A stretch of DNA of 21,800 nucleotides, taken from a virus. A program made the position numbers and the translations under genes. Positions 7,087 to 21,800 of this stretch are shown here, piece by piece. The notes beneath the pieces are model-generated. The model saw only the letters and a program-made list of their open reading frames with translations. It made no database searches and had not been told where the DNA came from. The stretch's first letter is position 1. Each line of letters begins with the position of its first letter. The stretch spans positions 1 through 21,800 of IMG/VR virus record IMGVR_UViG_3300021254_000251; one strand, given 5' to 3'.

Positions 7087-7638
7087 TTATTCTACGTTTT
7101 TAACTTTTTCTGCTAGGGCTTTAAGCTCTCTCTCTTTACGCTCTTTCTTTTTACGTGCCTTTTTCTCAGCCTGACGTTTGCGGGCGGCCGCACGTTCTTT
7201 TTCTTCTCTTTCTCTTTTAATTCTTTCTGTCTCTTGCTCTTTAAAGAGTTTTTTTGCTTCCTTTACTTTCTTAACCCAATATTTTTGATATTTCATTTCA
7301 TGGGCTTTGTGTTCAACGCCTTCTTTTGTAAACCTATTACTATTTATAAGTTTAGAATAAGCAAGATAAATAGCAAAATCAAAATCGAAAGCATCTTCTT
7401 TATTACATACTGTTTTAATTTGAGTCCCAAATTTAAAAGTAAAACGTAATACTTTATTAGGGACAAGAATTTCAATTTTTACTATTTCTGAATAAAATAT
7501 ATCATCTGTTATTGGATTGTTTTTTGTTTTTTGAATAGCTTTGGCAATAACACTATTTGCATATATGTCACTCGCATTAATAGTAATTGATTGTGATGTT
7601 GGTACTGATGAAAAATGCATAAGTTCTGAATAATTCAT
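7087..7638 (-). CDS. Hypothetical protein with a globular N-domain and a highly charged Lys/Glu/Arg-rich helical C-terminal tail; first gene of the MVP-like operon
   Basis: 183-aa ORF. The C-terminal ~60 aa reads KEAKKLFKEQETERIKREREEKERAAARKRQAEKKARKKKERKERELKALAEKVKNVE. RBS aaaaaggagaaaa. Directly precedes the MVP-like gene (41-nt spacer). Confidence 0.55.
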   Translation of the reverse strand: MNYSELMHFSSVPTSQSITINASDIYANSVIAKAIQKTKNNPITDDIFYSEIVKIEILVPNKVLRFTFKFGTQIKTVCNKEDAFDFDFAIYLAYSKLINSNRFTKEGVEHKAHEMKYQKYWVKKVKEAKKLFKEQETERIKREREEKERAAARKRQAEKKARKKKERKERELKALAEKVKNVE

Positions 7639-7794
7639 TTTTTATTTTCTCCTTTTTTTATTATGATAATATTATATAATAATTTTTTTAAAAGGTCAAA
7701 TTCAAGAAAAATAGGATTTAGGTTTTTTATTTTTAAAAGAATATATAAATAGGAGAATTAGTATAGATTATACTATAAAAAGGAGGAAAAATAG
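7639..7794. promoter_or_regulatory. Divergent intergenic/promoter region between the minus-strand (standard-code) module and the plus-strand (TAG-recoded) structural module
   Basis: 156-bp extremely AT-rich spacer between two divergent start codons. Contains TATAAT/TATAAA-like hexamers on both strands and the RBS aaaggagg 8 nt before the ATG at 7795. Exact promoters cannot be assigned by eye. Confidence 0.4.
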
Positions 7795-10701
7795 ATGCCA
7801 GGAATAAATAATAATTTATACCCACCTATTTTTAAAACAGCATATGCGCCTGCTTTCGCTGATGAATGTAGAGTTTATTTTGCAATATCTAATTATAATA
7901 ATTTAGATGATATTGATATAAATAAAGTACAAGTAATTGTACAAAATCAAAAAACGAATCAATCTGTATTAAAAAAAGAATCATACCCTAGCGGTATAAA
8001 AATTGCGTCTTTAAAAACAGATCTTGAACGAGCAGGAGATGATAGATATTATATTGAATTAATGGATTCTGATATTGAAGGAAAAACGGGTTTTAGTTAC
8101 AATCAATATTATAAAGTTCAAATTAGATTTACTGCGAAGAATAAACAAGTAAAAAATATTTCAAATTCGCAGAAAATAGATAATTGGTTAAATGAAACTT
8201 TACAATATTTTTCTTAGTGGTCAACGGTAGTATTAATAAAACCTGTTAGTCGTTTAAAAATTTCTTTAAAATATTTTGAACAAGAATCTTAGAGTAATAC
8301 TTTAACAACTAATTCTTTTACTGTTCTTGGATAGGTGAAGCATGAAGTTGATTCTGATAAAGAGGAATTAAAAAATTATAGAATATCCGTATATACCGAA
8401 GACGGAGAGTTATTAGAAGATAGTGGATAGTTACTTTTTAATGAGGATAATTAGATTCAATATCATTGCCGATATAATTTTTAGAATGGAGACTATAAAA
8501 TAAAAGTGTCCGTATTAACTAAAAATTTATATTTTCAATAGCAAGTTTTTGATTTTCAGGTGTCCGCCGTTGCTTATACTAATTTTGAGGCAGTGATTTC
8601 TGCGGATATAGATAATAAAAATGCATGCGCGGTTATTTCTGTTAAAAAGGATTTAATGGTTGGGTTGAATACTAATATAGTAATTTAGAGAACTTCTAGT
8701 AAAGAAGATTTTAAATATTGGTAGGATGTTTATACAACTTCAATTCCTGCAAATAGTATTTTAAATTTTACTTGGAAAGATTATACTATTGAAAGCGGCG
8801 TTTGGTATAAATATAGAGTATCTAAACGAAATCAATAGAATTTTAGATCAACACCTATTGAAATAAAAAATCCTATTATGGCAGATTTTGAAGATATATT
8901 TTTAACTAATATCGAAGGACAATTAAAAATTCGATTCGATCCTCAAATTAATAATTTTTCTAAAGTCGTATCGGAGTCCTTAGTAGAAACAATTGGTTCT
9001 CAATATCCTTTTATTAGAAGGAATGGTAAAGTTGGATATAAAACTTTTTCTATCTCTGGAACTATATCTTATTTAACAGATATAGGTTCTAATTTAATGC
9101 ATGCTTCTAAAACATAGCTGTATGGAGATTCGGCAAATTTATATAAAGAATATAATCAATAGAACAATATTAATTTATATAATGATATTACTCAGGAAAA
9201 AGTTTTTCGAGATAAAGTATTAGATTTTTTATATGAGAATAATGTAAAATTGTATAAATCTTCAACAGAAGGTAATCTTTTAGTTAAATTAATGAATATT
9301 AGTTTAACTCCTAATAATACATTAAGTAGACAAATCTATAGTTTTACATGTACTGCATACGAAATTGATACTTTTAATTATAATAATTGTATAAAATATT
9401 TTATTCAAGACCCTGGCCAATACGTTTAGGAAGATATTTTATTAATACAAAGATATGGACAGCTTTATTATCCTAATTTAAGTGTATATTATCCTCAAGA
9501 GGATGAGTCTAAACATTTTAATAATAATGATTTATATTTTGGAGCAGGATAGATTTTATCAACGTTAATAAAACAAAAGTATCAAACTTTAACTAGTGAA
9601 GATATTGATATTAATATAAATAAACTATCTTATTTAAAAATTACTTTAACAAGTCCTCCTTATTTAATTGGAGTGATAGAAAATTAGCCTTATCGTATTA
9701 CAGATAATACATCCGTGGCTAATGCAGTTTATTCTGGCCATATAGTTAAAATTAATGGTGTTCCAATTATAATTAATAAAGACGGCATATATTAGCTTTC
9801 TAATGATGATACGGCAGTCACTTCATTGCAGTTTATTTCTCCTTATGAACAAGGCGTTATAGATTTTGAAGTTTATATAGAAGAAAGCGAAAAACAAAAA
9901 GTGGATTTTAAAGGATATAATAGTTTTAATAAAATAGGTCAGCTATGGGGAACTTTTAGCTTCTTTGATAGTTTAAAAGAAAATCTTTGTAATAATATAA
10001 CAAATAGGTATCTTTTTACAAACGATTCTTATGAACAAGAGGTTCAACAAATTAATGGTATAAGATTTCAGGCGGAGCCTGGAACGGTTATTTTTGTACG
10101 AGAAAATCAAGATGGCCAATACGAAAAACATATTTTAAATGAAACTGGATTATTATAGTTTTATGATTAGGATACTAATATTCAAGGTTTTTATTTTATG
10201 GGACCGAAACTTGAAGAAGTGTCAGCGGAAGAGAAAGATAAATATGGTTTAAAACCTTATCAATTTTTTAATACAAATGAACCTATTACTTTGGATGTTA
10301 TAAAGCATCCGCAAAATAATTATGTTTATTATTTTTCTTCATACAATAGTATTACTGATACTTTAACGGTTCCCGCGGGTTAGCTTCATGATTATGGAGA
10401 TAATGAAATAGATGGTAATGCTTTAGTTATTTCTGATAATACTTTAAATGGTAATTTAATAGGCCCTAATATTTTACAATTATATTCTAATTTAAATGAT
10501 ACTACATATACATGGGACGCTACAAGTCAAGAAGCTAGAGAATTAAATAATGAGACTTTAGGATTATTATTTGCTACTGCTAATAGTTGGATTTATTATC
10601 AAGGTGTGTGGTATCCTTTTTCTCTTGAGCATCAAGTACCTTTAACTCAAACTGAAGCTATAATAGATTATTATTGTACAGTTTTGAAAAGGAGGTATTA
10701 A
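7795..10701 (+). CDS. Large virion structural protein (tail/baseplate module), about 968 codons including about 22 in-frame TAG codons read as sense
   Basis: RBS aaaggagg then ATG 7795. The ORF-track fragments 7795..8217, 8878..9117, 9826..10158 and 10198..10383 share frame 1. Hand reading shows the intervening stretches are open in that frame apart from TAG. The first TAA in frame is at 10699..10701, immediately before the RBS/ATG of the next gene. Function inferred only from operon context. Confidence 0.65.
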
Positions 10702-10706
10702 TTTTT

Positions 10707-12842
10707 ATGAATAAAAGTACAAAATATCAAAAGTATTTGAATGATGCCGCTTTTTTAAAATAGCTTACTGAATTACATATAAAAGATTATTTTGTAAAAA
10801 TAGCTGTTTTAGATTGGAAAGAGAATTTTATTGAAAATATTGAAGGTAAAGTAATAAGCGCAAGTATTAATATAGATGGGAATAGTATTATTCGTCGTAC
10901 CGCAACTTTAAGTGTATTAATAGATGAAACTAATAATGATATTACTAACGTTAAAAATATTTTATCTATTAATAAAAAAATTAATTTACAAATAGGTTTT
11001 ATTAATAGCACGGATAAATATTTAGATGAGCCTATTATTTGGTTTCCTCTTGGAGTTTATGTAATAACTGATAATTCAATTTCTTATTCAAGCACTGGAT
11101 TGGTAGCATCGTTACAATTAAAAGATAAAATGTGTTTATTAAACGGTAATTGCGGTGGGACCTTTCCCGCATCAGTTATTTTTGATACTTATACGACTGT
11201 TGATGAAAACGGACATGAAGTAATTGAGCGACCTACTATTTATCAAATTATTCAAGAGTTAGTAAATCATTTTGGCGGGGAGCAGCTTGGAAAAATTATT
11301 ATTTCTGATTTAGATAACCGTGTTAAACAAGTTATGAAATGGACCGGGAATTCGCCTTTATATGTTGCTAAATTTTCTTAGGATCAATATTTTTATACAA
11401 CGGATTCTAGTAATCCTAATATAGTAAAAAATAATCAGAAATTTCCAAAACAGGCTTTTGAATATGGAGAAGATGTAGGATATATTTATACAGATTTTAC
11501 ATATCCTGGAGAATTAATTGGAGACGCGGGTAGCACTATTACTGATATACTAGAACAGATAAAAAATGTATTAGGTAATTTTGAATATTTTTATGATTTA
11601 AATGGCAATTTTGTTTTTAGATAGAAAAAAAATTATTTAAACAATGCTCAATCTAAATATATTTTAGATAATGTTAAGGCAGAAGAGAATGATAGAACTA
11701 TCTTACCTGATTATATTAATTCTTTAGGGTAGAACAATGCATTAAGTGCTTATTTAATTGAAATAAATAATGGAACTTCCGCCTATGAATTTAATAATAG
11801 TAATTTAATTTCTAGTTATAGTAATACTCCAAAATATAGTGAGATAAAAAATGATTTTGTAGTATGGGGTATTAGAAAAAGTACATAGGGGATAGAGATT
11901 CCGCTCCGTTATCACTTAGCTATTGATAAAAAACCTCAAATAAATAATTCTTATTATGTTTTTGAATATTAGGATGAAACTGATGGATTAAAAAAATGGT
12001 ATCGTCCAATATTTTTAGAAACAAATAAAGATCGACCTACAAAAGGAAGCGCGGGAGTCTTTTATTGTGTGGGCGCATCTGAAGAAAAGATAAAAGAAAA
12101 ATAGTCTAAAATAGCAAGTTTTCCTATTTATAAATGGGGAGATAACGGTTATGAAAAAATAGATTCTCACTTAGAGAAAATCACTACAAAAGATTGGCGG
12201 ACATAGTTATTGATGCAAGGTTTAGAAGGCAATGTATTAGGAACTGAAAGTAATTATTATTTTGCGGAATTGTTTAACGAATGGCCTCAAATATATGATG
12301 TAAGAGCAGGTAAATTTTTTAAAGAGACACTTAATAATCCTACATAGATAAATTATTTTTTAGATTTTATTGATGCTCCCGCATCTCCTATTGCAGAACT
12401 TGATGTAAATAATATAGGTCGCCGCACGAAAGTTTTTAATGAAGAATCTAATGTTAATTGCGTTTTTTAGGCATGGATTCCAGATTTAATATTAATAAAT
12501 ACTGATGATGAAGATAAAGGAATTTTAACAGAATAGTGTGTTGCAAGAGGTCAGCCATATTATCAAGTTGGCCCTGAAATCTATGATTCTCTTGAGACAG
12601 GCGGTTTTCGTTATTCCGCATACGAAGAAATTAGACAAGTAATTCATTAGTATACTAAATATAATGAATCTATTTCTTTACAAACGATACCTATTTATTA
12701 TCTTGAACCTAATACTAGAATTACCGTTAATAATACAGAAAGTAATATTTATGGAGATTATATGATTGAAAGTTTATCTTTTACTCTTGATAATTCTAGT
12801 ATGCTAACCATTAATGCAACAAGAGTTCCAGATAAGATTTAA
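10707..12842 (+). CDS. Virion structural protein (tail/baseplate-associated), about 711 codons with about 13 in-frame TAG
   Basis: RBS aaaaggagg at 10687..10695 and ATG 10707. Single frame (includes ORF-track fragment 11100..11381). Only TAG interrupts until TAA at 12840..12842. C-terminal ...IYGDYMIESLSFTLDNSSMLTINATRVPDKI. The next gene's RBS follows directly. Confidence 0.65.
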
Positions 12843-12856
12843 AGGAGATAAAAGGA

Positions 12857-13567
12857 ATGAGTTATCAAATAGGACAATTTAGAAAAGAAATGAAATCTAA
12901 TTATTTAAATTAGTTTTCATCTTTCCATAGCCAAAAAGTAAAAACAAGTACATAGATTTCAACAGATATTTATTTTTAGGATATAGGGTTTTTATTTGAT
13001 GGCGGGCAAAGTTTTGAACATGGAAAAAATTATTATGTAAAATTAAAAATAAAAAGAAGTTTAACAAATGATTTTAATTTTACATTAGTATTACAAGAAA
13101 GGGATGAAAGTCAAGTCTACAATGAACAATTTTTAAAGACTTTTTATCTTCCAAAACTTCAAAATAATGAAGATACTAACGATAGTTTAGTTGTAGAGGT
13201 TGTTTTCAATCCATTAGTAAATTTTAATTATTTAACATTAAAGTTAAATAGAACTGCGGAAGATTTTAATATTAAAAACGATGATAAAAGCGCAGGAAGA
13301 CTTTTTGAAGTGGTTGAAGAAGAATGTAATTGTTATTAGATTGAAAATGTAATTTCGTCTATCGCAGGAGTAAATGAATTTATAAAAATTGGTGTACAAG
13401 GTCCTTCAGGATTTTTAATGTGTATTAATGGAGAAGAAATAAGAATTGGACCGAGTGGAATTTATTAGATAAAAAATGGATATAAAATAAATTTTATAGG
13501 ATTCATTATAACGGCAGCAGATAATAACTCTTCTAATAATTATTTTATATTAGATTATCAATATTAA
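12857..13567 (+). CDS. Structural protein, 236 codons with 5 in-frame TAG; contains IGVQGPSGFLMCINGEEIRIGPSGIY segment
   Basis: RBS aaaggagataaaagga and ATG 12857. Frame is open except for TAG until TAA 13565..13567. The next gene's RBS overlaps the stop. Confidence 0.6.
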
Positions 13568-13584
13568 AAGGAGAATGTAACAAT

Positions 13585-16224
13585 ATGAATTACGGAAGTT
13601 TTTATGGAGGCCGCAGAGGAACCTCTTTTATTATTGCAAAAAGCTATCCCGATATTATATCTATGACGAATGATTTTGCGGAAGGGAATGATTTTTTAGA
13701 CGTTGCATATGATGAATATGTACTTATTAATACAGTAAATAAAAATCATCCTGATAACGGAAAACTGTTCAGAAGAGGGTATGATTATAATAGCAATAGA
13801 ACGATTTCTGGGACAAGAGCATATGATAGTAATGGAGACGAGATAATTAATGGAACTTAGCAGCAATATCTTGAAGCTACATATGTATTAAAAAATGATA
13901 TTCCCGCGCATGGCGCAGTCTATATAGGAACAATTGTAGGTCCTTCAGGGCGAGGCTCGCTTTTATCTTTTGTGTCATATGATAAGGTTGAAGAATATAA
14001 AAATAATACACCTGATACAAGAAAGATGGGCGGATCTGGAACTGCGGAATTGATGCCTGGTAAAGATAGTCAAGGTAATTATAATGATGATATTTTATGG
14101 AACAGCGTTTCTATTATATCGAATAATCATGAATCAAGTACTGCTTATATTGGTTTTAAAATTCCGTATCCTGTAATAGACTTTGAAATAAAAGAAATTA
14201 CTCCATATCAATAGTCAGAAATCGTAAGAATTGACGATCAAATGCACCCATTTTATGAAAAATGGTCAATAGCAATTCCGCCAGGAAAATTTGGTAATGC
14301 TGTAATAAGTATGAAAAAAATAAATACAGCTAATTATTTTTCTGATGATTCTACTATTACTGATTTTTTACCACCTATTTATTCTACACCTCAAAGTAAT
14401 GAGGCAATGAGCATAGAAGATTTTAAGGCGGCGGGTATATAGGAAGGCGACGATATAATTGTTTATTAGTATAAAGATTATGCTAATAATGCAGATTTAA
14501 GTAAAACAAAATTATGTTATTTAGCACCTCACAAACAAATTGAAAATATTAATATTAATTCTGAAAATGGAACATTAACAATCTCTTATACAGATAATAA
14601 AGTAGATACGTTTGAAAATGCGATTTCCGCAGTTAAGTAGCTATCTTTTACTAATGGAGTATTACGTATAAAATATAATACAGGCCAAGAGGTTAATATT
14701 GATATTATTTATATAGATAAAGTTTTATTAAATGATAACGGTATCTTAGCATATAAGAAGAATATAGAAGATCCTAATTTTGATTTAGAAGCGGTTACCG
14801 CCGATGATACAGATCATGTGTTAGGAATAATAAAATGGATAGATAATATTCAATATGATAATACATCAAAGAATTTAAGAATTAATTATAATACTGAAAA
14901 TACTTAGGATATTTCTATTCCTTATATTAGTGATATTACTTTTTTAGAAGATGGAACCGTGCAAATCAGAAAAGGCGGAGATGATTGGGAAAACGTTACC
15001 TATACAGAGAATGGATAGACAAAAGATAGGGTTCTTAAATGGATAGATAATATTACTTATAATCGTGATAATGATTCTGTACAAATTTTTTATAATACAG
15101 ATAAAGAACGCCCAGGCACTATATTTTCTAATGTTTTTAATCGTATTTTAAGAATAGAATTTCAGGAAGATGTTTCTTTTGATGATGGTTCTACTGGACC
15201 AGGTTTTATTATTTCTTATGCAGATGAATCAACAGATAAAATTCATTTTTCAACAGGCCACTTAATAAAGAGTATGTCTATTGTTTCTGGCGGGCCGGAA
15301 GAAAGCGAAGGCGGGGAAACAACTTATTCTAATTCTAAACTTGCAATTCAATATACTGATAATTCTGTAGAAGAATTAGATTTAAACGGAAAATTAATTA
15401 GTAATATGTCTTTTGTAAGTGATGAAGGTACAGATATTCCGACTTCTAATTTAATAGTTACCTATGATAATCAACAAACTCAATCTTTGAATTTTGTTTA
15501 TCCAAGAAGTGCTGTAGTAGAAGATTCTACAATAGAAGATTCTCATAAAATAAAATTTTATGATTCTCTAGGCCAACAAATGTCAGAGTCAAATCCTATT
15601 ACGGGTATTGAGAGTGTTATTATAGATGAAAATAATAGGTTATTAGTTCTTTATAATAATCCAACCGCGCGCGATAGTATTCCCGATACTAGAGCTGTTG
15701 TTAGAACAGGATTAAATGGTACAGCTTTAACATGGGATGATTTAGGGCTTGTCCGCACTAATTCAGGTCTTTTGATTGGTAAAAATTTAAAAATGGAATA
15801 GATACAGCCTGTAGGTAGTGAATAGCCATTAACAATTGACCAAATTATTGCTTATTTAAATGAAAATTATACAGATGGATAGGTTAATGGGTCATTATAT
15901 CGTATTATAACTATTGGATAGGATTTAGAAAATAAACAATTTTATGGTTTTGACACTGAAAAAGCTACTTGGTATTTATTAGGATCTATTCCTGAAGCCA
16001 TTCCAGGAAGTAAAGATTGTGTTTGCGGAACTCTTGAAGATTTTAATTCTGCTTTTGATGTTAAAAAATATGAATTAATCACTGGTGGACTTTTCTTTAT
16101 TGTAAAAGATGATGAAGAAGTAGAGGAAGAATCAGAACCTATTTATGATGGAGATATTCCTGATGAAGAAGATATTCCTGAATAGGAGGAACCACTTTCA
16201 GACGAGATTGAGGAGGGTATCTAA
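13585..16224 (+). CDS. Large structural protein, probably fibre/receptor-binding, with internal repeated beta-rich modules; 879 codons with about 13 in-frame TAG
   Basis: RBS aaaggagaatg...ATG 13585. ORF-track fragments 13585..13860, 13972..14214, 14242..14442 and 15274..15801 are all frame 1 and are joined by TAG only. TAA at 16222..16224. Internal repeats such as KWIDNIQYDNTSKNLRINYNTENT / KWIDNITYNRDNDSVQIFYNTDKE. Acidic C-terminus DGDIPDEEDIPEQEEPLSDEIEEGI. Confidence 0.65.
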
Positions 16225-16226
16225 TT

Positions 16227-16535
16227 ATGAATGGTTATCAGGGACAAATTCGTGCTAGAGATGCTTCAAATAAAAAGTTTTTAGCAGGACAAGATATTAT
16301 ATCTTTAATTCAAGAGCAAACTACTCCAACTATAAAATATTTAAAAAGAATTGGTATTTTTGCTCCATAGGGAACGAAGGTATCAATTAATAATACAAAT
16401 GATAGTACAGTGGAAAAGATTATATAGATTGGAAAAACTAAAATCTATTAGGTAGAAGATGTAGAAATAAGAGAGTTCCACTTTCTTTAGGACTCTACTT
16501 CTGAAGTTATTATAGATTATATTATAGAATATTAA
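16227..16535 (+). CDS. Small hypothetical protein (102 aa if the 4 in-frame TAG are sense)
   Basis: RBS gaggaggg 10 nt upstream of ATG 16227. 103 codons free of TAA/TGA in very AT-rich DNA, ending TAA 16533..16535, followed by a terminator hairpin. Weaker than its neighbours. Confidence 0.45.
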
Positions 16536-16583
16536 GGTCAAAAAGTATTAAATCTTATTTTTGATTTTTGATTTATGAAAAGG

Positions 16584-16626
16584 AAAGGATATTAATTTTA
16601 AAAAGATTAATATCCTTTTCTTTTAT
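16584..16626 (+). terminator. Rho-independent terminator after the first structural sub-operon
   Basis: 13-bp perfect inverted repeat aaaggatattaat (16584..16596) / attaatatccttt (16606..16618) followed by ttcttttat. Confidence 0.6.
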
Positions 16627-16644
16627 ATATAAGGAGAAATATAT

Positions 16645-17466
16645 ATGGATAAATTAAAATATATTCGAGTACAGAATAAAGATGGTACTTTTGGTAATAA
16701 AATTCCTGTTGCAGTAGATAGTAATAATATTATTATGTCTGATGGAGATACTCTTCAAAATTTTGCAAATGATATTGAAAATGATCTTGGGCAAATAACT
16801 GAGGAAATAAAAGGTTCTCATACTGGACAAAACGGAAAAGTTTATCAAAATTTAAAAGAACATCTTAATGATATATCAGCACAGATAGAAAATGAAAAGA
16901 TTTTAACTTTAGTTATCTCTAATGAAGTCCATATTATTCCTACTGATGAAAATGGCGCAGGAGGAGATTTTTCTCATTGTTTTTCTAATATAATTGTGTA
17001 TTATGGAGAACAAGATATAACGGATAGTGAAGATATTGTTTGGGATGTTAATATTCCTGATAATATATTAGCTTTATGGGATGAAGAATCTTATAAAATT
17101 ACAATAAAAAATATGGTAAACGATAGTGCTGTTATTTCTATTCATATTACATATAAAAATAAAGAAAGTTAGAAAAAAATAATTGTTAAAAAAGTAAAAG
17201 GAGGAAAAACTCCTATTGTAGTAGAAATAGAATCAAGCGCCGGAAATATTTTTAAAAATGGAGGAATTAATACAACTTTAAAAGCTATAGTTAAAAGAGG
17301 CGGAGAAGATATTAGTAGTTCCGTTACTAATTTTCATTGGATTAAATATAATCAAAATGGAGAGAGGGATTTAAATTGGAGTAAAACTAATTCTCAAACT
17401 ATTTAGTTAACGTCTCTTGACTTCACAAATAAAGCAATTTTTATTTGTGAAGTAACAATAAATTAA
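16645..17466 (+). CDS. Fibre-associated structural protein, 273 codons with 2 in-frame TAG
   Basis: RBS aaggag and ATG 16645. After the TAG at 17170 the frame continues (KKIIVKKVKGGKTPIVVEIESSAGNIFKNGG...) to TAA 17464..17466 with no new start codon nearby. N-terminal MDKLKYIRVQNKDGTFGNKIPVAVDSNNIIMSDGDTLQNF resembles tail-fibre N-termini. Confidence 0.6.
17421..17452 (+). promoter_or_regulatory. Perfect 13-bp stem-loop inside the 3' end of gene 16645..17466
   Basis: cttcacaaataaa (17421..17433), loop gcaatt, tttatttgtgaag (17440..17452). No U-run follows. The next gene's RBS aaggaagg is 15 nt downstream. Confidence 0.35.
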
Positions 17467-17480
17467 GGAAGGAAATAAAT

Positions 17481-19955
17481 ATGGCGCAGACTACTTATGG
17501 TTCAATTACACTTACTTCTTATAATTCTATAACAAAAATAGAAGTTTATTATTATAAATCAACTAGTGCCGTGGCTCTCTCTGGGGGGTCGTGGTCTACT
17601 ACTAATCCCACTTGGGAAAATGGTAAATATATATGGCAGAAAATTAAAACGCTTTATGAAGATGGATCAAGCACAGAAAGTGATGCAGTAAATATTACAG
17701 GTCAGCAAGGTAAATCTGGTGAAGCTGCATTTTCATATAAGTTAACTTCATCTGAATCTGTAATTGTATTATTAAAAACAGGAGAATATTCAACTAATTA
17801 GATTACTTTCAACGCGACATATAAACAGGGCAATAATCCAATTGCATCATATGATGGTGGATTTGTTATTCAATATTCAATAAATGGCGTTGAATGGGTT
17901 ACAGATTATACGTCATTAGAGAATGAATCATCTAAAATTTACACCGTACCTGAAAATATATTAATTATTAAGTGTTTATTATATCAAACTAAAGATTGTG
18001 ATGAATTACTAGATATTATAACTGTTCCCATTGTCAAAGATGGTATTGATGGAACTGGAGTGATGACTAATTTATTCCCTATTTATTTAGTATCTGATAA
18101 AGATAAAGGTATAACTCTTGATGATCATGGGTGGACAAGATTTAAACCATCACTTGATACTGAAAACAAATATTTATGGATTGATTATATTTCAAGATAT
18201 GCTGAAGGTAATATAAAGCCACAGTTGATTGAAAAGACTGGTAATAAAATTGCTTTTGACTATCATGGTGAGAGAAGTCCTTTTGAAAGCATAATTATTG
18301 ACATTACACCCGTTCAATCTGGAAGTGGCGCACCCTCTTTAGGTAACAAACGCCATATAAGTGGTTGGACAAGTATTGATATAAGGCAGGCTGATATTAA
18401 TCTTATGCCCTATGAAGCAGGAAAATATATGCTGGGTTTATCAGAAGATAGTGGCACTCTTAATAATTAGATATTAAATTTAGAAAACACAATGTTTACG
18501 ATACAAGGAGACACCTTAATCATTACAAAGGGCGATTTAGGAACACATATTGCATTTCCTGAAGAAGTTGGCACTGTTTATGGTGGTAAATACAATGTTA
18601 CTACAGGTGTATTAATGATCACACATGGTTATATTGATAAATATAATAATGAGCCTCTTCCTTCAACTTGGATTTCTGATCGTGATGTATATGTAAAAGG
18701 CACTAAACCGTCAGTTGATGCATAGGTAGTTTTTGAATTGAGTGAACCCCTAGTATATGAATTAACGCCTCAGGAAATTATGATTTTTGAACATTCAAAT
18801 TCTATTTATGCTTCTACGGGCGATATATCAATTTCTTATTATGATTATCAAACTATGACCAGTCCTTACATAGATTATGCGCTTGTGTCTGTTTTTGATG
18901 CTTCTACTGCTGCATTAGAAGAGGCGACTCAATTAAAACAAGATTTTCAAGAATTACAAGAAGATATTCAAACACAACTTGACCAAAAAGTTGAAACATG
19001 GTGTCAAATTAATGACCCCGCCCTGTCTTGGACTACAACTGATTTAAAATAGCAGCATAATGGAGACATTTGGTATTATATCGGAGAATCTAATATGTCA
19101 TATAAAAATAATACGACTTATAAATATGTGGCTTCAACAGGAAAATGGATGCCATATGCAGTAAGTGCTGATCTTTTTGATAAAATAGATATGAAAACTA
19201 CTATTTATTATGGTGAAATTACAGATACATTCTCTAATATAGAAGCAGGTGATTATCTTGTAGATTCTACGAATGGAAGCACTTATAGATATGAAAATGA
19301 CCAATGGATTAAAGTAACAGATTATACCTCTGCTATAAATGAATTAGAGTAGAAAATTTTAACAGCTTTAAATAATAAAGTAAATAGAACTGGAGATACT
19401 TTTACAGCTTCTGTGGGTATTAATAATGGATACCTTTTAGCAAAGCATGATGACAACTAGTGTTATCTTGAAGCTATGGGGGAAGCAGGTGGTAAAGCAC
19501 GATTAATGTCTATGAAAGATAGTCCAATTATTGGTCTTTATGGTGTTTATAATGATGCAAGTCAATGGTCAGTTCAACATGATTGTAGTACAAATAAAAC
19601 AGAATTACCAGCATTAGTTATGAGTAGTTCCGCGTCTGGAACAGTCGGATCTTCATTCTCTGGGGCATCTCAAAAATATTGTTATTTATATAAAATTGGT
19701 AAGATTGTATTTATGAGTATGAGTTTAGGGTATTCAGATAACTCGACTACTATAGCTACGAATACAACTTTATTCACTGTTCCTACAGGTTATAGACCCG
19801 CGGCTGAAGCACGTCTACCTGCGCAAATTGATAGCAAAACGTCTGCTCAAAGTTATCCAGCAAGTATAACTGTAGCAACTAATGGTCAAATTCAGCAAAA
19901 TACTAGTAGCGCGGCGACAGGTATTTATTGTTTCGGTATGTGGGAAACCAATTAA
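17481..19955 (+). CDS. Tail fibre protein with phage-tail-repeat-like motifs, 824 codons with 6 in-frame TAG
   Basis: RBS aaggaagg and ATG 17481. ORF-track fragments 17481.., 18060.., 18492.., 18738.., 19095.. and 19476..19955 are all frame 0 and joined by TAG only, ending TAA 19953..19955. N-terminal SITLTSYNSITKIEVYYYKSTSAVALSGGSWSTTNPTWENGKYIWQKIKTLYEDGSS and later KYLWIDYISRYAEG fit the Y...T.P.....Y.W.R phage-tail-repeat pattern. Ser/Thr-rich C-terminal domain. Confidence 0.7.
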
Positions 19956-19974
19956 TTAAAAGGAGGTGATTAAG

Positions 19975-20946
19975 ATGGATGATAATGTAATTATAGCTAA
20001 ATTTAATCATAATTCAGAAATCACAACTAAACCAAGCACTCAATGGAATCGTGGGCAAATTCTTAAAATTAAAGGAATCCATGATTTACCGTCTACTTTT
20101 GAGGTAGAAACTTCCAATTATAGAGAGTATGGTGCCAAAAGATATTTAGGTTAGAATTATGAATTCGTAATTCCAGATGAATATTTTGAATCTGGGAAAA
20201 TGATTTATATCTGGATTATGAAACGAGTCGAGTCTTCAGATATTACATCAAAATATCTTGTGAAAATTCCACTTAGGACACGTCAGAAGCCTTTAGATTA
20301 TGATGTAGATTCTGAAAAAAGGGACATTGTAGCAGAAGCTATTGTTGCTTTACAGAACGCTGAAACAGAAATTAATTCTAAAATGGATGATGTTATTGAA
20401 TATGAACAAAAGATAACTAAAGTTGAAGAATCATTTAATAATCTGACAGCATTGGCAACTACTCTCCCGCCCGGTTCTGAGGCGACTGTTGATAAGTCAA
20501 AAGATGAAGAAGGAAATTATATGATCTTCAACTTTGGCATCCCTAAGGGAGAAAAAGGTGATAAGGGCGACACTGGTGCCAAGGGCGATAAGGGTGATAC
20601 ATATACTCTTACTCCACAAGATAAGACTGATATTATCAATGCATATAAAGAAGATATGACTGAACAAACCAATCAGATATTGGCCAACTTACGGGAAGAA
20701 GTGGATGAAACTATGACCACAATGGAACGGCATGAACAGACTGCGAAACAGTATTCTGATCAATCTGTCGCGTCAGCTGAGTCTGCACAAGTAAGCGCTG
20801 ATAGGGCTGAACAGGCTGCAAGTCAAGGTGGTTACATGTATTTTACTATTGAAGATGGTAATTTAATTATGGAAAAGACATCTAACGTAGATGTTGATTT
20901 CAGTATTGAAGATGGAAATTTATATATGGAGGTGGGGAATGTATGA
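19975..20946 (+). CDS. Tail fibre/fibre-associated protein with a short collagen-like G-X-Y repeat (GEKGDKGDTGAKGDKGDT); 323 codons with 1 in-frame TAG (20152..20154)
   Basis: RBS aaaggagg 19959..19966 and ATG 19975. The ORF-track pieces 19966..20154 and 20200..20946 are in the same frame and separated only by the TAG. Ends with TGA 20944..20946, overlapping the next ATG (ATGA). Confidence 0.6.
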
Positions 20947-21173
20947 GTGATCTTGTAAAAAAAGACTTGGGTACTGTAAGTGCTTATAAGTATGCTAAGT
21001 TGCATGGTTATACGGGTACTGAAGATGAATTCGGAGTGCTTATGGCTAGTTATGCAAGTGTTGCGCAAGAAGCTAGGCAGTTTGCTCAAAGTGCAAGTCA
21101 GTCTGCTGAAGCGACACGGAATTTATTTAATAGTATTCGAGTAGTAGATACAACACTTGAGATAGGAGAATAA
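20943..21173 (+). CDS. Small protein (76 aa) between fibre genes; Ala/Ser/Gln-rich helical C-terminal half
   Basis: ORF track. Start overlaps the upstream stop (ATGA), suggesting translational coupling. TAA at 21171..21173. Confidence 0.5.
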   Translation: MSDLVKKDLGTVSAYKYAKLHGYTGTEDEFGVLMASYASVAQEARQFAQSASQSAEATRNLFNSIRVVDTTLEIGE

Positions 21174-21175
21174 AT

Positions 21176-21800
21176 ATGAGTGTAATAGATAAAATTAAAC
21201 TTGATGGGACTACCTATGATGTAGGTAAGACGCCCGATACCACTCTTGCTGTTAGCGGATCTCCTGCTGATGCTGCAAAAGTTGGTACTGAATTAGATAA
21301 AAAAGTAGATAAAGTCACGGGAAAAGGACTGAGCACAGAAGATTTTACTACAGCTGAAAAAACAAAGTTGGCTGGAATTGCTGAAGGAGCAACAGCACTG
21401 ACGATTGACCCGACACTGACGAAGGAAGGGCAGGCCGCAGATGCGTCTGAGACTGGGAATAAAATAACTAGTTTAAAGGAAGATTTAGATGAGAACGTTA
21501 ATGATTTAAAGAGCGGTATTATAAATGTCATCGACACAACCCTTGAACTTACCCGCAAAGCACCGGAATCTGTGGCAAATAACTACGGGCTTTTGTCTAC
21601 TGGATATGCAAAATACAATACAAGCTGTTGTGTGCTTAAATACCCTGTCACAGAAGGAAGCACCATACTCATTAAATCCCCGACTCCCGCAGTAAGCAAT
21701 TATGCAAGTTTCCAGTTCCAGAGTGCTGCAGGTGCTTCAGAATCAAGCAACGTCAATCTTGTGGGGACACCTTACACAACGAAGACCTACGGTTATATCG
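21176..21800 (+). CDS. Tail fibre / receptor-binding protein (N-terminal part; continues beyond window)
   Basis: ATG 21176, 2 nt after the previous TAA. Hand translation gives MSVIDKIKLDGTTYDVGKTPDTTLAVSGSPADAAKVGTELDKKVDKVTGKGLSTEDFTTAEKTKLAGIAEGATALTIDPTLTKEGQAADASETGNKITSLKEDL.... The DKV.GKGLS..DFT..EK.KL.GIE.GA block is a motif I recognise from tail fibres and hyaluronidase N-termini of Gram-positive phages. Open to the end of the window with no TAG/TAA/TGA. Confidence 0.7.
   Translation, partial: MSVIDKIKLDGTTYDVGKTPDTTLAVSGSPADAAKVGTELDKKVDKVTGKGLSTEDFTTAEKTKLAGIAEGATALTIDPTLTKEGQAADASETGNKITSLKEDLDENVNDLKSGIINVIDTTLELTRKAPESVANNYGLLSTGYAKYNTSCCVLKYPVTEGSTILIKSPTPAVSNYASFQFQSAAGASESSNVNLVGTPYTTKTYGYI

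Follow-up and report, generated by a model that had tools for sequence, protein, structure and literature searches.

Nested exchangeable tail-fibre modules probably end the late operon of a TAG-recoded phage

The stretch of DNA analysed here, called the window, is the 21,800-nucleotide (nt) sequence of the IMG/VR virus record IMGVR_UViG_3300021254_000251 (positions 1 to 21,800). From 7795 to the window end, its plus strand carries an operon, g1 to g10, that is intact only when TAG is read as a sense codon and whose last genes code for fibre proteins. An earlier note, made from the sequence alone, had proposed that the distal fibre genes (20200–21800) are a receptor-binding module acquired recently and horizontally from phages using the standard code. 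Our preferred reading is that this late operon probably ends in a tail-fibre cluster of nested exchangeable modules of different ages, the distal genes being a case of ordinary tail-fibre mosaicism, here in a recoded phage, rather than a recent import. Directly demonstrated below are the break in composition, the gene model, the points where homology ends and the polymorphism of TAG sites. Of the earlier proposal, the compositionally distinct, mosaic character of the region is retained, but not the single, recent, TAG-free 1.6-kb block starting at 20200.

Three layers would make up the cluster. The first (~16846–20600: C-terminus of g6, g7 and N-terminus of g8) would be common to standard-code phages, with backbone-like codons and few, recent TAGs, mostly due to CAG-to-TAG transitions at variable sites. 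The second (~20450–21463: C-terminus of g8 after a collagen-like hinge, g9 and the adaptor of g10) would be a TAG-free and CAG-rich piece with its own codon usage and a GC content at third codon positions (GC3) of ~0.3, inherited by all close relatives. The third (21464 onward, distal part of g10) would be the receptor-binding or enzymatic end, replaced in every relative. Recombination would occur at conserved joints, namely the N-terminal anchors, the GXY repeat and the g10 adaptor motif. Imported pieces would come from a TAG-free gene pool and, once in a recoded genome, slowly gain TAG by C-to-T transition from CAG; module swaps may alter host range.

Reading of TAG as glutamine rests on several observations. 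With TAG as sense, the plus strand from 7795 to 21800 gives ten open reading frames (ORFs) with 61 in-frame TAGs, among them ORFs of 102–968 amino acids (aa); under the standard code it is fragmented. TAA and TGA stay stops, and recoding either of them does not restore the late-operon ORFs. TAGs of the window are aligned to CAG or CAA in three related loci (L001, L005 and L076) and, reciprocally, TAGs found only in L005 are aligned to CAA or CAG in the window; in more distant homologues the residues at these sites vary (K, N, T, H). The genes g1 to g5 (7795..16535, plus strand), a tail/baseplate-like backbone with a GC3 of 0.13–0.17, contain 52 in-frame TAGs, amounting to 1.8% of codons and 34% of Gln-type codons, and were used as reference composition for codon-usage comparisons. 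Homologues of these genes in L009 and L058, recoded phages that are more distant, are likewise TAG-rich. By their PHROG matches, the products of g2, g6, g7 and g10 fall among tail or tail-fibre proteins. The minus strand from 1 to 7641 carries genes readable in the standard code. As part of the same joint reading, we regard the window as probably the early/late junction of a large TAG-to-Gln recoded phage, ~130–190 kb as judged from relatives, whose host is likely a Clostridia-type Firmicute. A CTA suppressor was sought: the window and 27 of 29 related loci gave no tRNA, and L002 and L008 each gave a tRNA-Leu only, all these sequences together covering a small part of ~140-kb genomes.

The compositional discontinuity reported earlier at the distal fibre genes proved robust. 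GC content is 0.3966 in 20200–21800 compared to 0.2901 in 7795–20150. Along the concatenated plus-strand operon, the best single GC3 change-point lies at 20443 (0.161 to the left, 0.317 to the right; chi-square p=2.5e-16). Its log-likelihood ratio (LLR) is 29.5, whereas 300 shuffles of the codons never exceeded 8.9. Its support interval, 19620–20521, includes the ~20200 boundary drawn earlier, but the gene at this place starts at 19975 and the best point falls inside g8, ~100–150 nt upstream of the collagen-like hinge. Relative synonymous codon usage (RSCU) of 20443–21799 correlates with that of the g1–g5 backbone at r=0.45, as against r of at least 0.88 for random 451-codon backbone samples; for the part from g6 to the N-terminus of g8 (g6–g8N), r=0.94. 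The share of CAG among CAA and CAG codons rises from 16/101 upstream to 9/16 downstream (p=0.001), in line with the codon-usage discontinuity also proposed, and the two GC-rich strings quoted in its support are present at 20557 and 21428. The distal segment therefore differs from its flanking native genes beyond sampling noise, as a compositional island does. The GC3 shift is common to all close relatives.

The gene that covers position 20200 is g8, which truly begins at 19975 and is itself recoded. Its ATG is preceded by AAAGGAGGTGA, a strong Shine-Dalgarno (site AAGGAGGTGA, 19960..19969, plus strand, 5 nt upstream of the ATG), and its TGA stop overlaps the start of g9 (ATGA). It codes for a fibre protein of 323 aa (19975..20946, plus strand). 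Codon 60 is an in-frame TAG (20152..20154, plus strand), read as Gln on the basis of alignments to relatives and of an AlphaFold (AF2) model; the resulting peptide across this codon is YLGQNYEFVIPDEYFESGK. The same codon is TAG in L005, CAG in L001, CAC in L076 and His in standard-code homologues. Two full-length homologues, P0001 (95%) and P0002 (91%), of 323 and 324 aa, align straight through the TAG site, and a dozen proteins matching only the N-terminal ~200 residues likewise span it. In the AF2 model of P0001 (mean predicted local distance difference test, pLDDT, 69), residues 1–100 form a beta-sandwich with pLDDT 80–90, and residue 60 is located between strands 55–60 and 63–65 of this sandwich. 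The possibility that TAG 20152 is a true stop giving two proteins was rejected: the domain around the site is conserved and confidently modelled, and relatives have CAG or CAC there. The earlier statement that the distal genes contain no in-frame TAG thus fails for the first of them but holds downstream, where 547 codons after 20154 have none; their TGA and TAA stops, those of g8 and g9 respectively, were correctly described. Gene calling under the standard code splits g8, so that its anchor domain is missed, and the corrected model matters for annotating recoded phages.

The predicted layout of g8 comprises the N-terminal beta-sandwich (aa 1–100), a helix, a small beta domain and a (GXY)6 repeat, followed by a long helix and C-terminal beta-hairpin repeats. 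The repeat, GEKGDKGDTGAKGDKGDT, was located at 20548..20601 (plus strand), which substantiates the collagen-like GXY motif mentioned earlier. It is there that homology to standard-code phages ends: blastn to L002 stops at 20572, and tblastn to L006 and L008 at residues 209–216. Residues 1 to ~209 of g8 are 72–82% identical in P0003–P0014, L002 and L006, and the C-termini differ after the repeat, which makes the latter a candidate recombination joint. Collagen-like repeats reportedly flank the variable host-specificity region of Streptococcus thermophilus phages (a finding attributed to Duplessis and Moineau in 2001). With only six GXY triplets, g8 has no Pfam match at E<=0.01 and does not reach the threshold of PF01391 (Collagen), a domain carried by many of its database matches; Pfam gave no match for g9 or g10 either. 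No significant fold match to the P0001 model was found in the PDB, only generic immunoglobulin/fibronectin type III (Ig/FN3)-like sandwiches. A tail fiber protein, gp16 of the Ruminococcus gnavus phage phiRg519T2 (MT980838.1), shows 31% aa identity to g8 residues 4–129. This likeness concerns the N-terminal beta-sandwich anchor, which alone matches, and phiRg519T2 differs in being a 37-kb standard-code temperate phage. From this alignment, the match supports a tail-fibre role for g8 and a Clostridia-type host.

The closest homologues of the distal block are two TAG-recoded sister phages, L001, of 5.1 kb, and L005, taken from a JGI contig of 23 kb. In both, gene order is that of the window from g7 through g8 and g9 to residue ~96 of g10, with 89–98% nt identity by segment. 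Between the window and L005, identity amounts to 96.7–100% in g2–g6, 91–95% in g7, 98% in g8N, 94% in the C-terminal part of g8 (g8C) and g9, and 89% in the N-terminal part of g10 (g10N). Presence of the block in both sisters implies that 20200–21463 was there before their divergence. The third relative, L076 (JAEEGL014364967.1), is 88% identical in nt over the N-terminal part of g7, the entire g8, g9 and g10N. Its ~3790 codons are free of in-frame TAG, and at the six g7–g8 TAG sites of the window that it covers it reads CAG (three times), CAA, CGA and CAC.

These comparisons bear on the explanation originally put forward, in which the whole of 20200–21800 would be a single standard-code receptor-binding module, devoid of TAG since it has just arrived. 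The break in GC, GC3 and codon usage near 20.2–20.5 kb, the lack of TAG after 20154 and the existence of standard-code phages sharing fibre genes with the recoded lineage all speak for it. Its timing and boundaries are already contradicted: the gene spanning 20200 starts at 19975 and holds a recoded TAG, and the acquisition of 20200–21463 would have to predate the split of the two sisters. The block is moreover composite, its four parts having GC3 values of 0.33, 0.22, 0.28 and 0.39, with a replacement point at ~21464. Near-identical copies in standard-code phages or prophages, which a recent import would leave to be found, were absent from GenBank phages, IMG/VR, JGI metagenomes, GTDB genomes and a set of 5.8 billion proteins. 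A blastn search of GenBank phages with 19900–21800 returned short motif matches only (the collagen repeat in Erwinia jumbo phages and a g10 motif in the crAss-like cr10_1). Since the closest homologues are recoded and L005 has TAG at the equivalent codon of g8, the notion of a recent import is partly refuted, and we consider this explanation very improbable.

Exchange with standard-code phages is supported for a wider segment of the cluster, mostly upstream of 20200. The fibre protein g6 (16645..17466, plus strand; 273 aa, 2 TAGs; supported by homology of relatives) begins with an anchor of ~70 aa common to recoded relatives, and its residues 68–272 share 43% aa identity with a 1034-aa protein of standard-code phages. 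Domains of g7, a large fibre/host-specificity protein also supported by relatives (17481..19955, plus strand; 824 aa, 6 TAGs), are found in 2257–2579-aa proteins of standard-code phages, with 58% aa identity over residues 5–283. Residues 1–190/209 of g8 are 78–82% identical in aa to standard-code phages (77% in nt to L002). Standard-code homologues (43–82% aa) therefore cover ~16846–20600, with residue ~68 of g6 and the GXY repeat of g8 as limits. The contigs concerned are a 105-kb one (L002–L004; L002 is ERZ27280375 k141_59831) and two of 140 and 157 kb (L006/L059 and L008/L060), with a GC content of ~0.37. In L002, L006, L008, L059 and L060, long ORFs of up to 2579 aa have no in-frame TAG, and one L002 gene terminates in TAG. 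No homologue of g1–g5 was detected in the ORFs read upstream of the fibre genes (7–10 kb) in L002, L059 and L060, nor, by BLASTP or phmmer, in the three ORFs (7 kb) upstream of the L059 fibre cluster. The distribution of two modules is patchy: the C-terminus of g6 to g8N (g6C–g8N) occurs in L002, L059 and L060, and the distal domain of g10 in L113 and P0242. For g8C–g10N, the carriers seen are close relatives and L076 only. The exchange with standard-code phages claimed earlier thus finds support in g6C–g8N, but this segment has backbone-like codon usage (r=0.94).

A like pattern recurs in the recoded phage L058, from a 142-kb contig: the homologues of g1–g6 hold 61 TAGs, and the distal fibre genes, 65–92% identical in aa to the same standard-code phages, have one TAG in >3000 codons. 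Three of its fibre genes (843, 575 and 411 aa; 10810–16343) show a GC3 of 0.15 with one TAG in 1829 codons. TAG depletion together with backbone GC3 means that the two are decoupled here, and that "not yet ameliorated" fails as an explanation. This hints that selection or ongoing gene flow keeps fibres TAG-free.

Transfer could also have run the other way, the fibre cluster having arisen in the recoded lineage and TAG-free alleles having been exported to standard-code phages; the scarcity of TAG would in that case result not from import but from purifying gene flow in a pool common to both. That g6–g8N and the standard-code fibre genes are both backbone-like in codon usage (r=0.94) fits such an export, as does the expectation that only TAG-free alleles can work in a standard-code phage. 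It leaves unexplained the distinct codon usage of 20450–21800, and the codons at TAG sites suggest that TAG is derived (CAG/CAA/CGA/CAC in L076; K/N/T/A/H in standard-code homologues). We regard the reverse direction as having little chance of being right.

TAGs are not equally stable along the operon. The TAG sites of g1–g6 covered by L010 are all still TAG (20/20), as are those of g2–g6 covered by L005 (34/34), but in g7–g8 L005 keeps TAG at 3/7 sites (p=3e-4 vs g2–g6), with CAG, CAA or CGG as alternatives. Of the six TAG sites of g7, four are polymorphic in L005 and three are CAG in L001. In standard-code homologues, the residue at the covered g7–g8 sites is K, N, T, A or H. Together with the series CAC (L076), CAG (L001) and TAG (window, L005) at codon 60 of g8, these alignments suggest that the TAGs of g7–g8 are young and polymorphic and that TAG is the derived state. 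TAG density falls from 1.8% of codons in g1–g5 to 0.8% in g6–g8N (p=0.015) and then to zero: after 20154, the 547 codons without TAG include 19 Gln codons (p=9e-4 vs the whole upstream operon). That standard-code phages take part in the exchange of fibre modules, and that these are poor in TAG on that account, is plausible and has partial support.

Several observations weigh against the layered mosaic that we prefer, and some of them would be accommodated if no transfer had taken place at all. The distal fibres would then be long-resident, their composition resulting from protein composition and gene-specific selection (Ala/Gly/Thr-rich fibres, codon bias, TAG avoidance where dosage or timing must not hinge on suppression), with TAG absence partly due to chance. 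GC at first and second codon positions (GC1 and GC2) is also raised in the Ala/Gly/Thr-rich distal proteins, so that part of the GC shift is amino-acid composition. With just 19 Gln codons, TAG absence after 20154 is not significant in comparison with g6–g8N (0/19 vs 9/54, p=0.10). Two conserved early genes, m4 and m6, have a GC of 0.39, a GC3 of 0.28–0.32 and deviant codon usage with no sign of transfer: the genome is compositionally heterogeneous in general, and outlier composition alone is not proof of foreign origin. The sharing of the shift by all close relatives and the three TAG-poor fibre genes of L058 with a GC3 of 0.15 also fit long residence, the latter with selection against TAG. 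Other points concern our reading only. The direction of transfer is one that we infer; for 20450–21800 no donor was found, the nearest relatives being the sister recoded phages and L076, whose stops are all TAA or TGA so that its genetic code is not readable from them. The absence of g1–g5 homologues in standard-code genomes covers only the few ORFs just upstream of the fibre clusters, and, when a shared family was sought, the standard-code fibre-sharing contigs were not among the best 80 of 129 matches to m6.

Against long residence without transfer stand a strong synonymous signal (GC3 doubles, and RSCU correlates at r=0.45 vs at least 0.88), a composition break that precedes by ~100–150 nt the end of homology at the GXY repeat, the replacement of the distal part of g10 in each relative, and the sharing of fibre genes with phages that have no backbone homologue in the stretch read upstream of their fibres. 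We thus hold an absence of transfer to be unlikely, and layered exchange of modules remains the reading that we follow for the end of the operon.

By alignment, the truly hypervariable point is in g10 after residue ~96 (~21464). The N-terminal adaptor of g10 (aa 1–96; 21176..21463, plus strand) is 89–95% identical in nt, and 83–90% in aa, to L001, L005 and L076; thereafter the four phages are unrelated. In g10 as in g8, a conserved anchor is thus followed by a replaced C-terminus. The distal, putatively receptor-binding part of g10 (21464..21800, plus strand) is cut by the window end and has the highest GC3 (0.39); its divergence in every close relative agrees with the module exchange envisaged earlier. 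The alternative g10 tip of L005 has an in-frame TAG. The adaptor contains the motif DKVTGKGLSTEDFTTAEKTKLAGIAEGA at 21308–21391, which is widespread among unrelated phages: fibres of Clostridium tetani, Pseudomonas, Salinivibrio and crAss-like phages carry it too. The fibre motifs quoted earlier are therefore present, but the specificity for phages of Gram-positive hosts ascribed to them is not. For host-range prediction, the swappable unit would thus be smaller than the 1.6-kb block, being limited to the g10 tip beyond residue ~96.

For residues 99–208 of g10, a word-based search found nothing, and an exhaustive HMMER search gave 27 relatives. These include P0241, a full-length g10 of 816 aa, identical over aa 1–208, with a C-terminal calcineurin-like metallophosphoesterase domain (PF00149, residues 538–752). 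Such an end suggests that the receptor-binding tip is an enzyme cleaving phosphodiesters, for which teichoic acid or capsule would be a plausible, speculative target. In P0242, a 67%-identical g10 tip is fused to a g9-like coil. A g10-like distal stretch (56% aa) was also found in a 59%-GC Clostridia metagenome-assembled genome (MAG; L113), in a gene with a GC3 of 0.55 among neighbours at 0.82–0.89, which is compositionally foreign there as well. Such a match in such a genome points to movement of the tip between genomes of very different composition. The DNA of the remaining g10 had no match in IMG/VR, JGI metagenomes or GTDB genomes. The 208-aa g10 fragment has no Pfam match, and so none to the phi29-type head fibre PF11133, with which some homologues of its N-terminal motif are annotated; its PHROG matches are tail and tail-fibre families.

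Between the two fibre genes, g9 (20943..21173, plus strand) codes for a small Ala/Ser/Gln-rich, coiled-coil-like protein, delimited by alignment of relatives. Its length is 76 aa in the window, 97 in L005 (9705–9998), 219 in L001 (4134–4793) and ~212 in L076 (9360–9998), with conserved ends and a variable middle. This Ala/Ser/Gln-rich middle is an in-frame indel hot spot among very close relatives.

The cluster resembles modular tail-fibre exchange in tailed phages by its conserved N-terminal anchors and replaced C-termini (g8, g10), by the GXY repeat at a homology breakpoint, by its patchy composition and by being common to phages without detectable homologues of each other's upstream tail genes. 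It differs in spanning phages that read TAG differently, where imports must be TAG-free and then accumulate TAG, and in being known here from sequence comparison. Distantly related Alteromonas phages share a host-recognition module (PMC10579305). Mosaicism itself is well known, and the cross-code aspect is a modest new angle.

TAG-to-Gln recoding is known from gut phages using code 15, among them the phAss-1 group (PMC10607447). In Borges et al. (bioRxiv 10.1101/2021.08.26.457843) and in the phAss-1 text, recoding concerns mainly late genes, in the former the late structural and lysis genes, and close standard-code and recoded relatives are reported. Like these phages, the window shows recoding concentrated in late genes, in-frame TAGs at Gln codons of relatives, early genes mostly in standard code, patterns that differ between close relatives, and one family with both recoded and standard-code members; unlike them, its lineage is absent from the GenBank phage set. 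Peters et al. are said to be a further source on such phages. The phAss-1 group was rejected as the family of the window phage, since among GenBank phages m6 does not match any of its members. By a search for terms, the text of Borges et al. has no mention of horizontal transfer or recombination and that on phAss-1 none of horizontal transfer; a late-operon TAG gradient linked to fibre exchange does not appear in either.

In families mixing codes, the fibre cluster might form a shared "code-neutral" gene pool in which only TAG-free alleles circulate and fibres stay TAG-poor, an idea that we put forward tentatively. If true, TAG count and polymorphism would provide a clock of module residence under the new code, CAC, CAG and TAG at g8 codon 60 being one step of it, and recoding would act as a one-way valve on gene flow within a single operon. 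Three fibre layers with different TAG loads would adjoin here in one operon, and sister genomes catch single CAG/TAG switches; the locus is a concrete place to ask how a code change affects gene flow between related viruses.

Minus-strand genes were also inspected. The gene m6 (4557–7046) codes for a protein of 829 aa that combines a shoulder domain of the major vault protein type (PF11978) with vault repeats (PF17795). Its homologues (53–99% aa) are carried by at least 129 IMG/VR contigs, most of the long ones measuring 120–200 kb, from TAG-recoded and apparently standard-code members, and by this similarity m6 assigns the window phage to a large family without cultured members. Among GenBank phages, the matches to m6 are confined to three huge-phage records (LR756500, LR756501 and LR756503; 462–735 kb), at ~40% aa. 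Between the window and the 142-kb relative (L013/L058), m6 is 84% identical in aa, compared to 47% for g1, 61% for g2, 39% for g3, 32% for g4, 49% for g5 and 48% for g6: recoded late genes diverge much faster than adjacent standard-code genes.

Kept beside m6 across the family is an RNA-repair-like cassette (3–2826, minus strand) with a metallophosphatase (m1), an AAA_33/KTI12-like kinase (m2) and an RNA ligase (m4) that carries a PHA02142 oligonucleotide/oligosaccharide-binding (OB) fold; it may repair tRNA against host anticodon nucleases. The adjacent m5 (2829–3611, minus strand) ends at TAG 2967–2969, and reading this TAG as Gln adds 46 aa up to a TAA. The extension (…HDKEKNKYCFDNNIILIRIPY…) resembles the conserved terminal part of a nuclease fold of the PD-(D/E)XK type after an EYDGEQH motif, and the m5 homologues in L009 and L035 have two in-frame TAGs each. 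The minus-strand block is thus not purely standard code, and m5 may be a recoded homing-endonuclease-like gene. Two AT-rich regions complete the window: 3612–4556 (GC ~0.25–0.27) has only short ORFs of 65–86 aa, and 7639–7794 is a 156-nt divergent intergenic region between m7 and g1 in which early and late promoters are presumed to lie.

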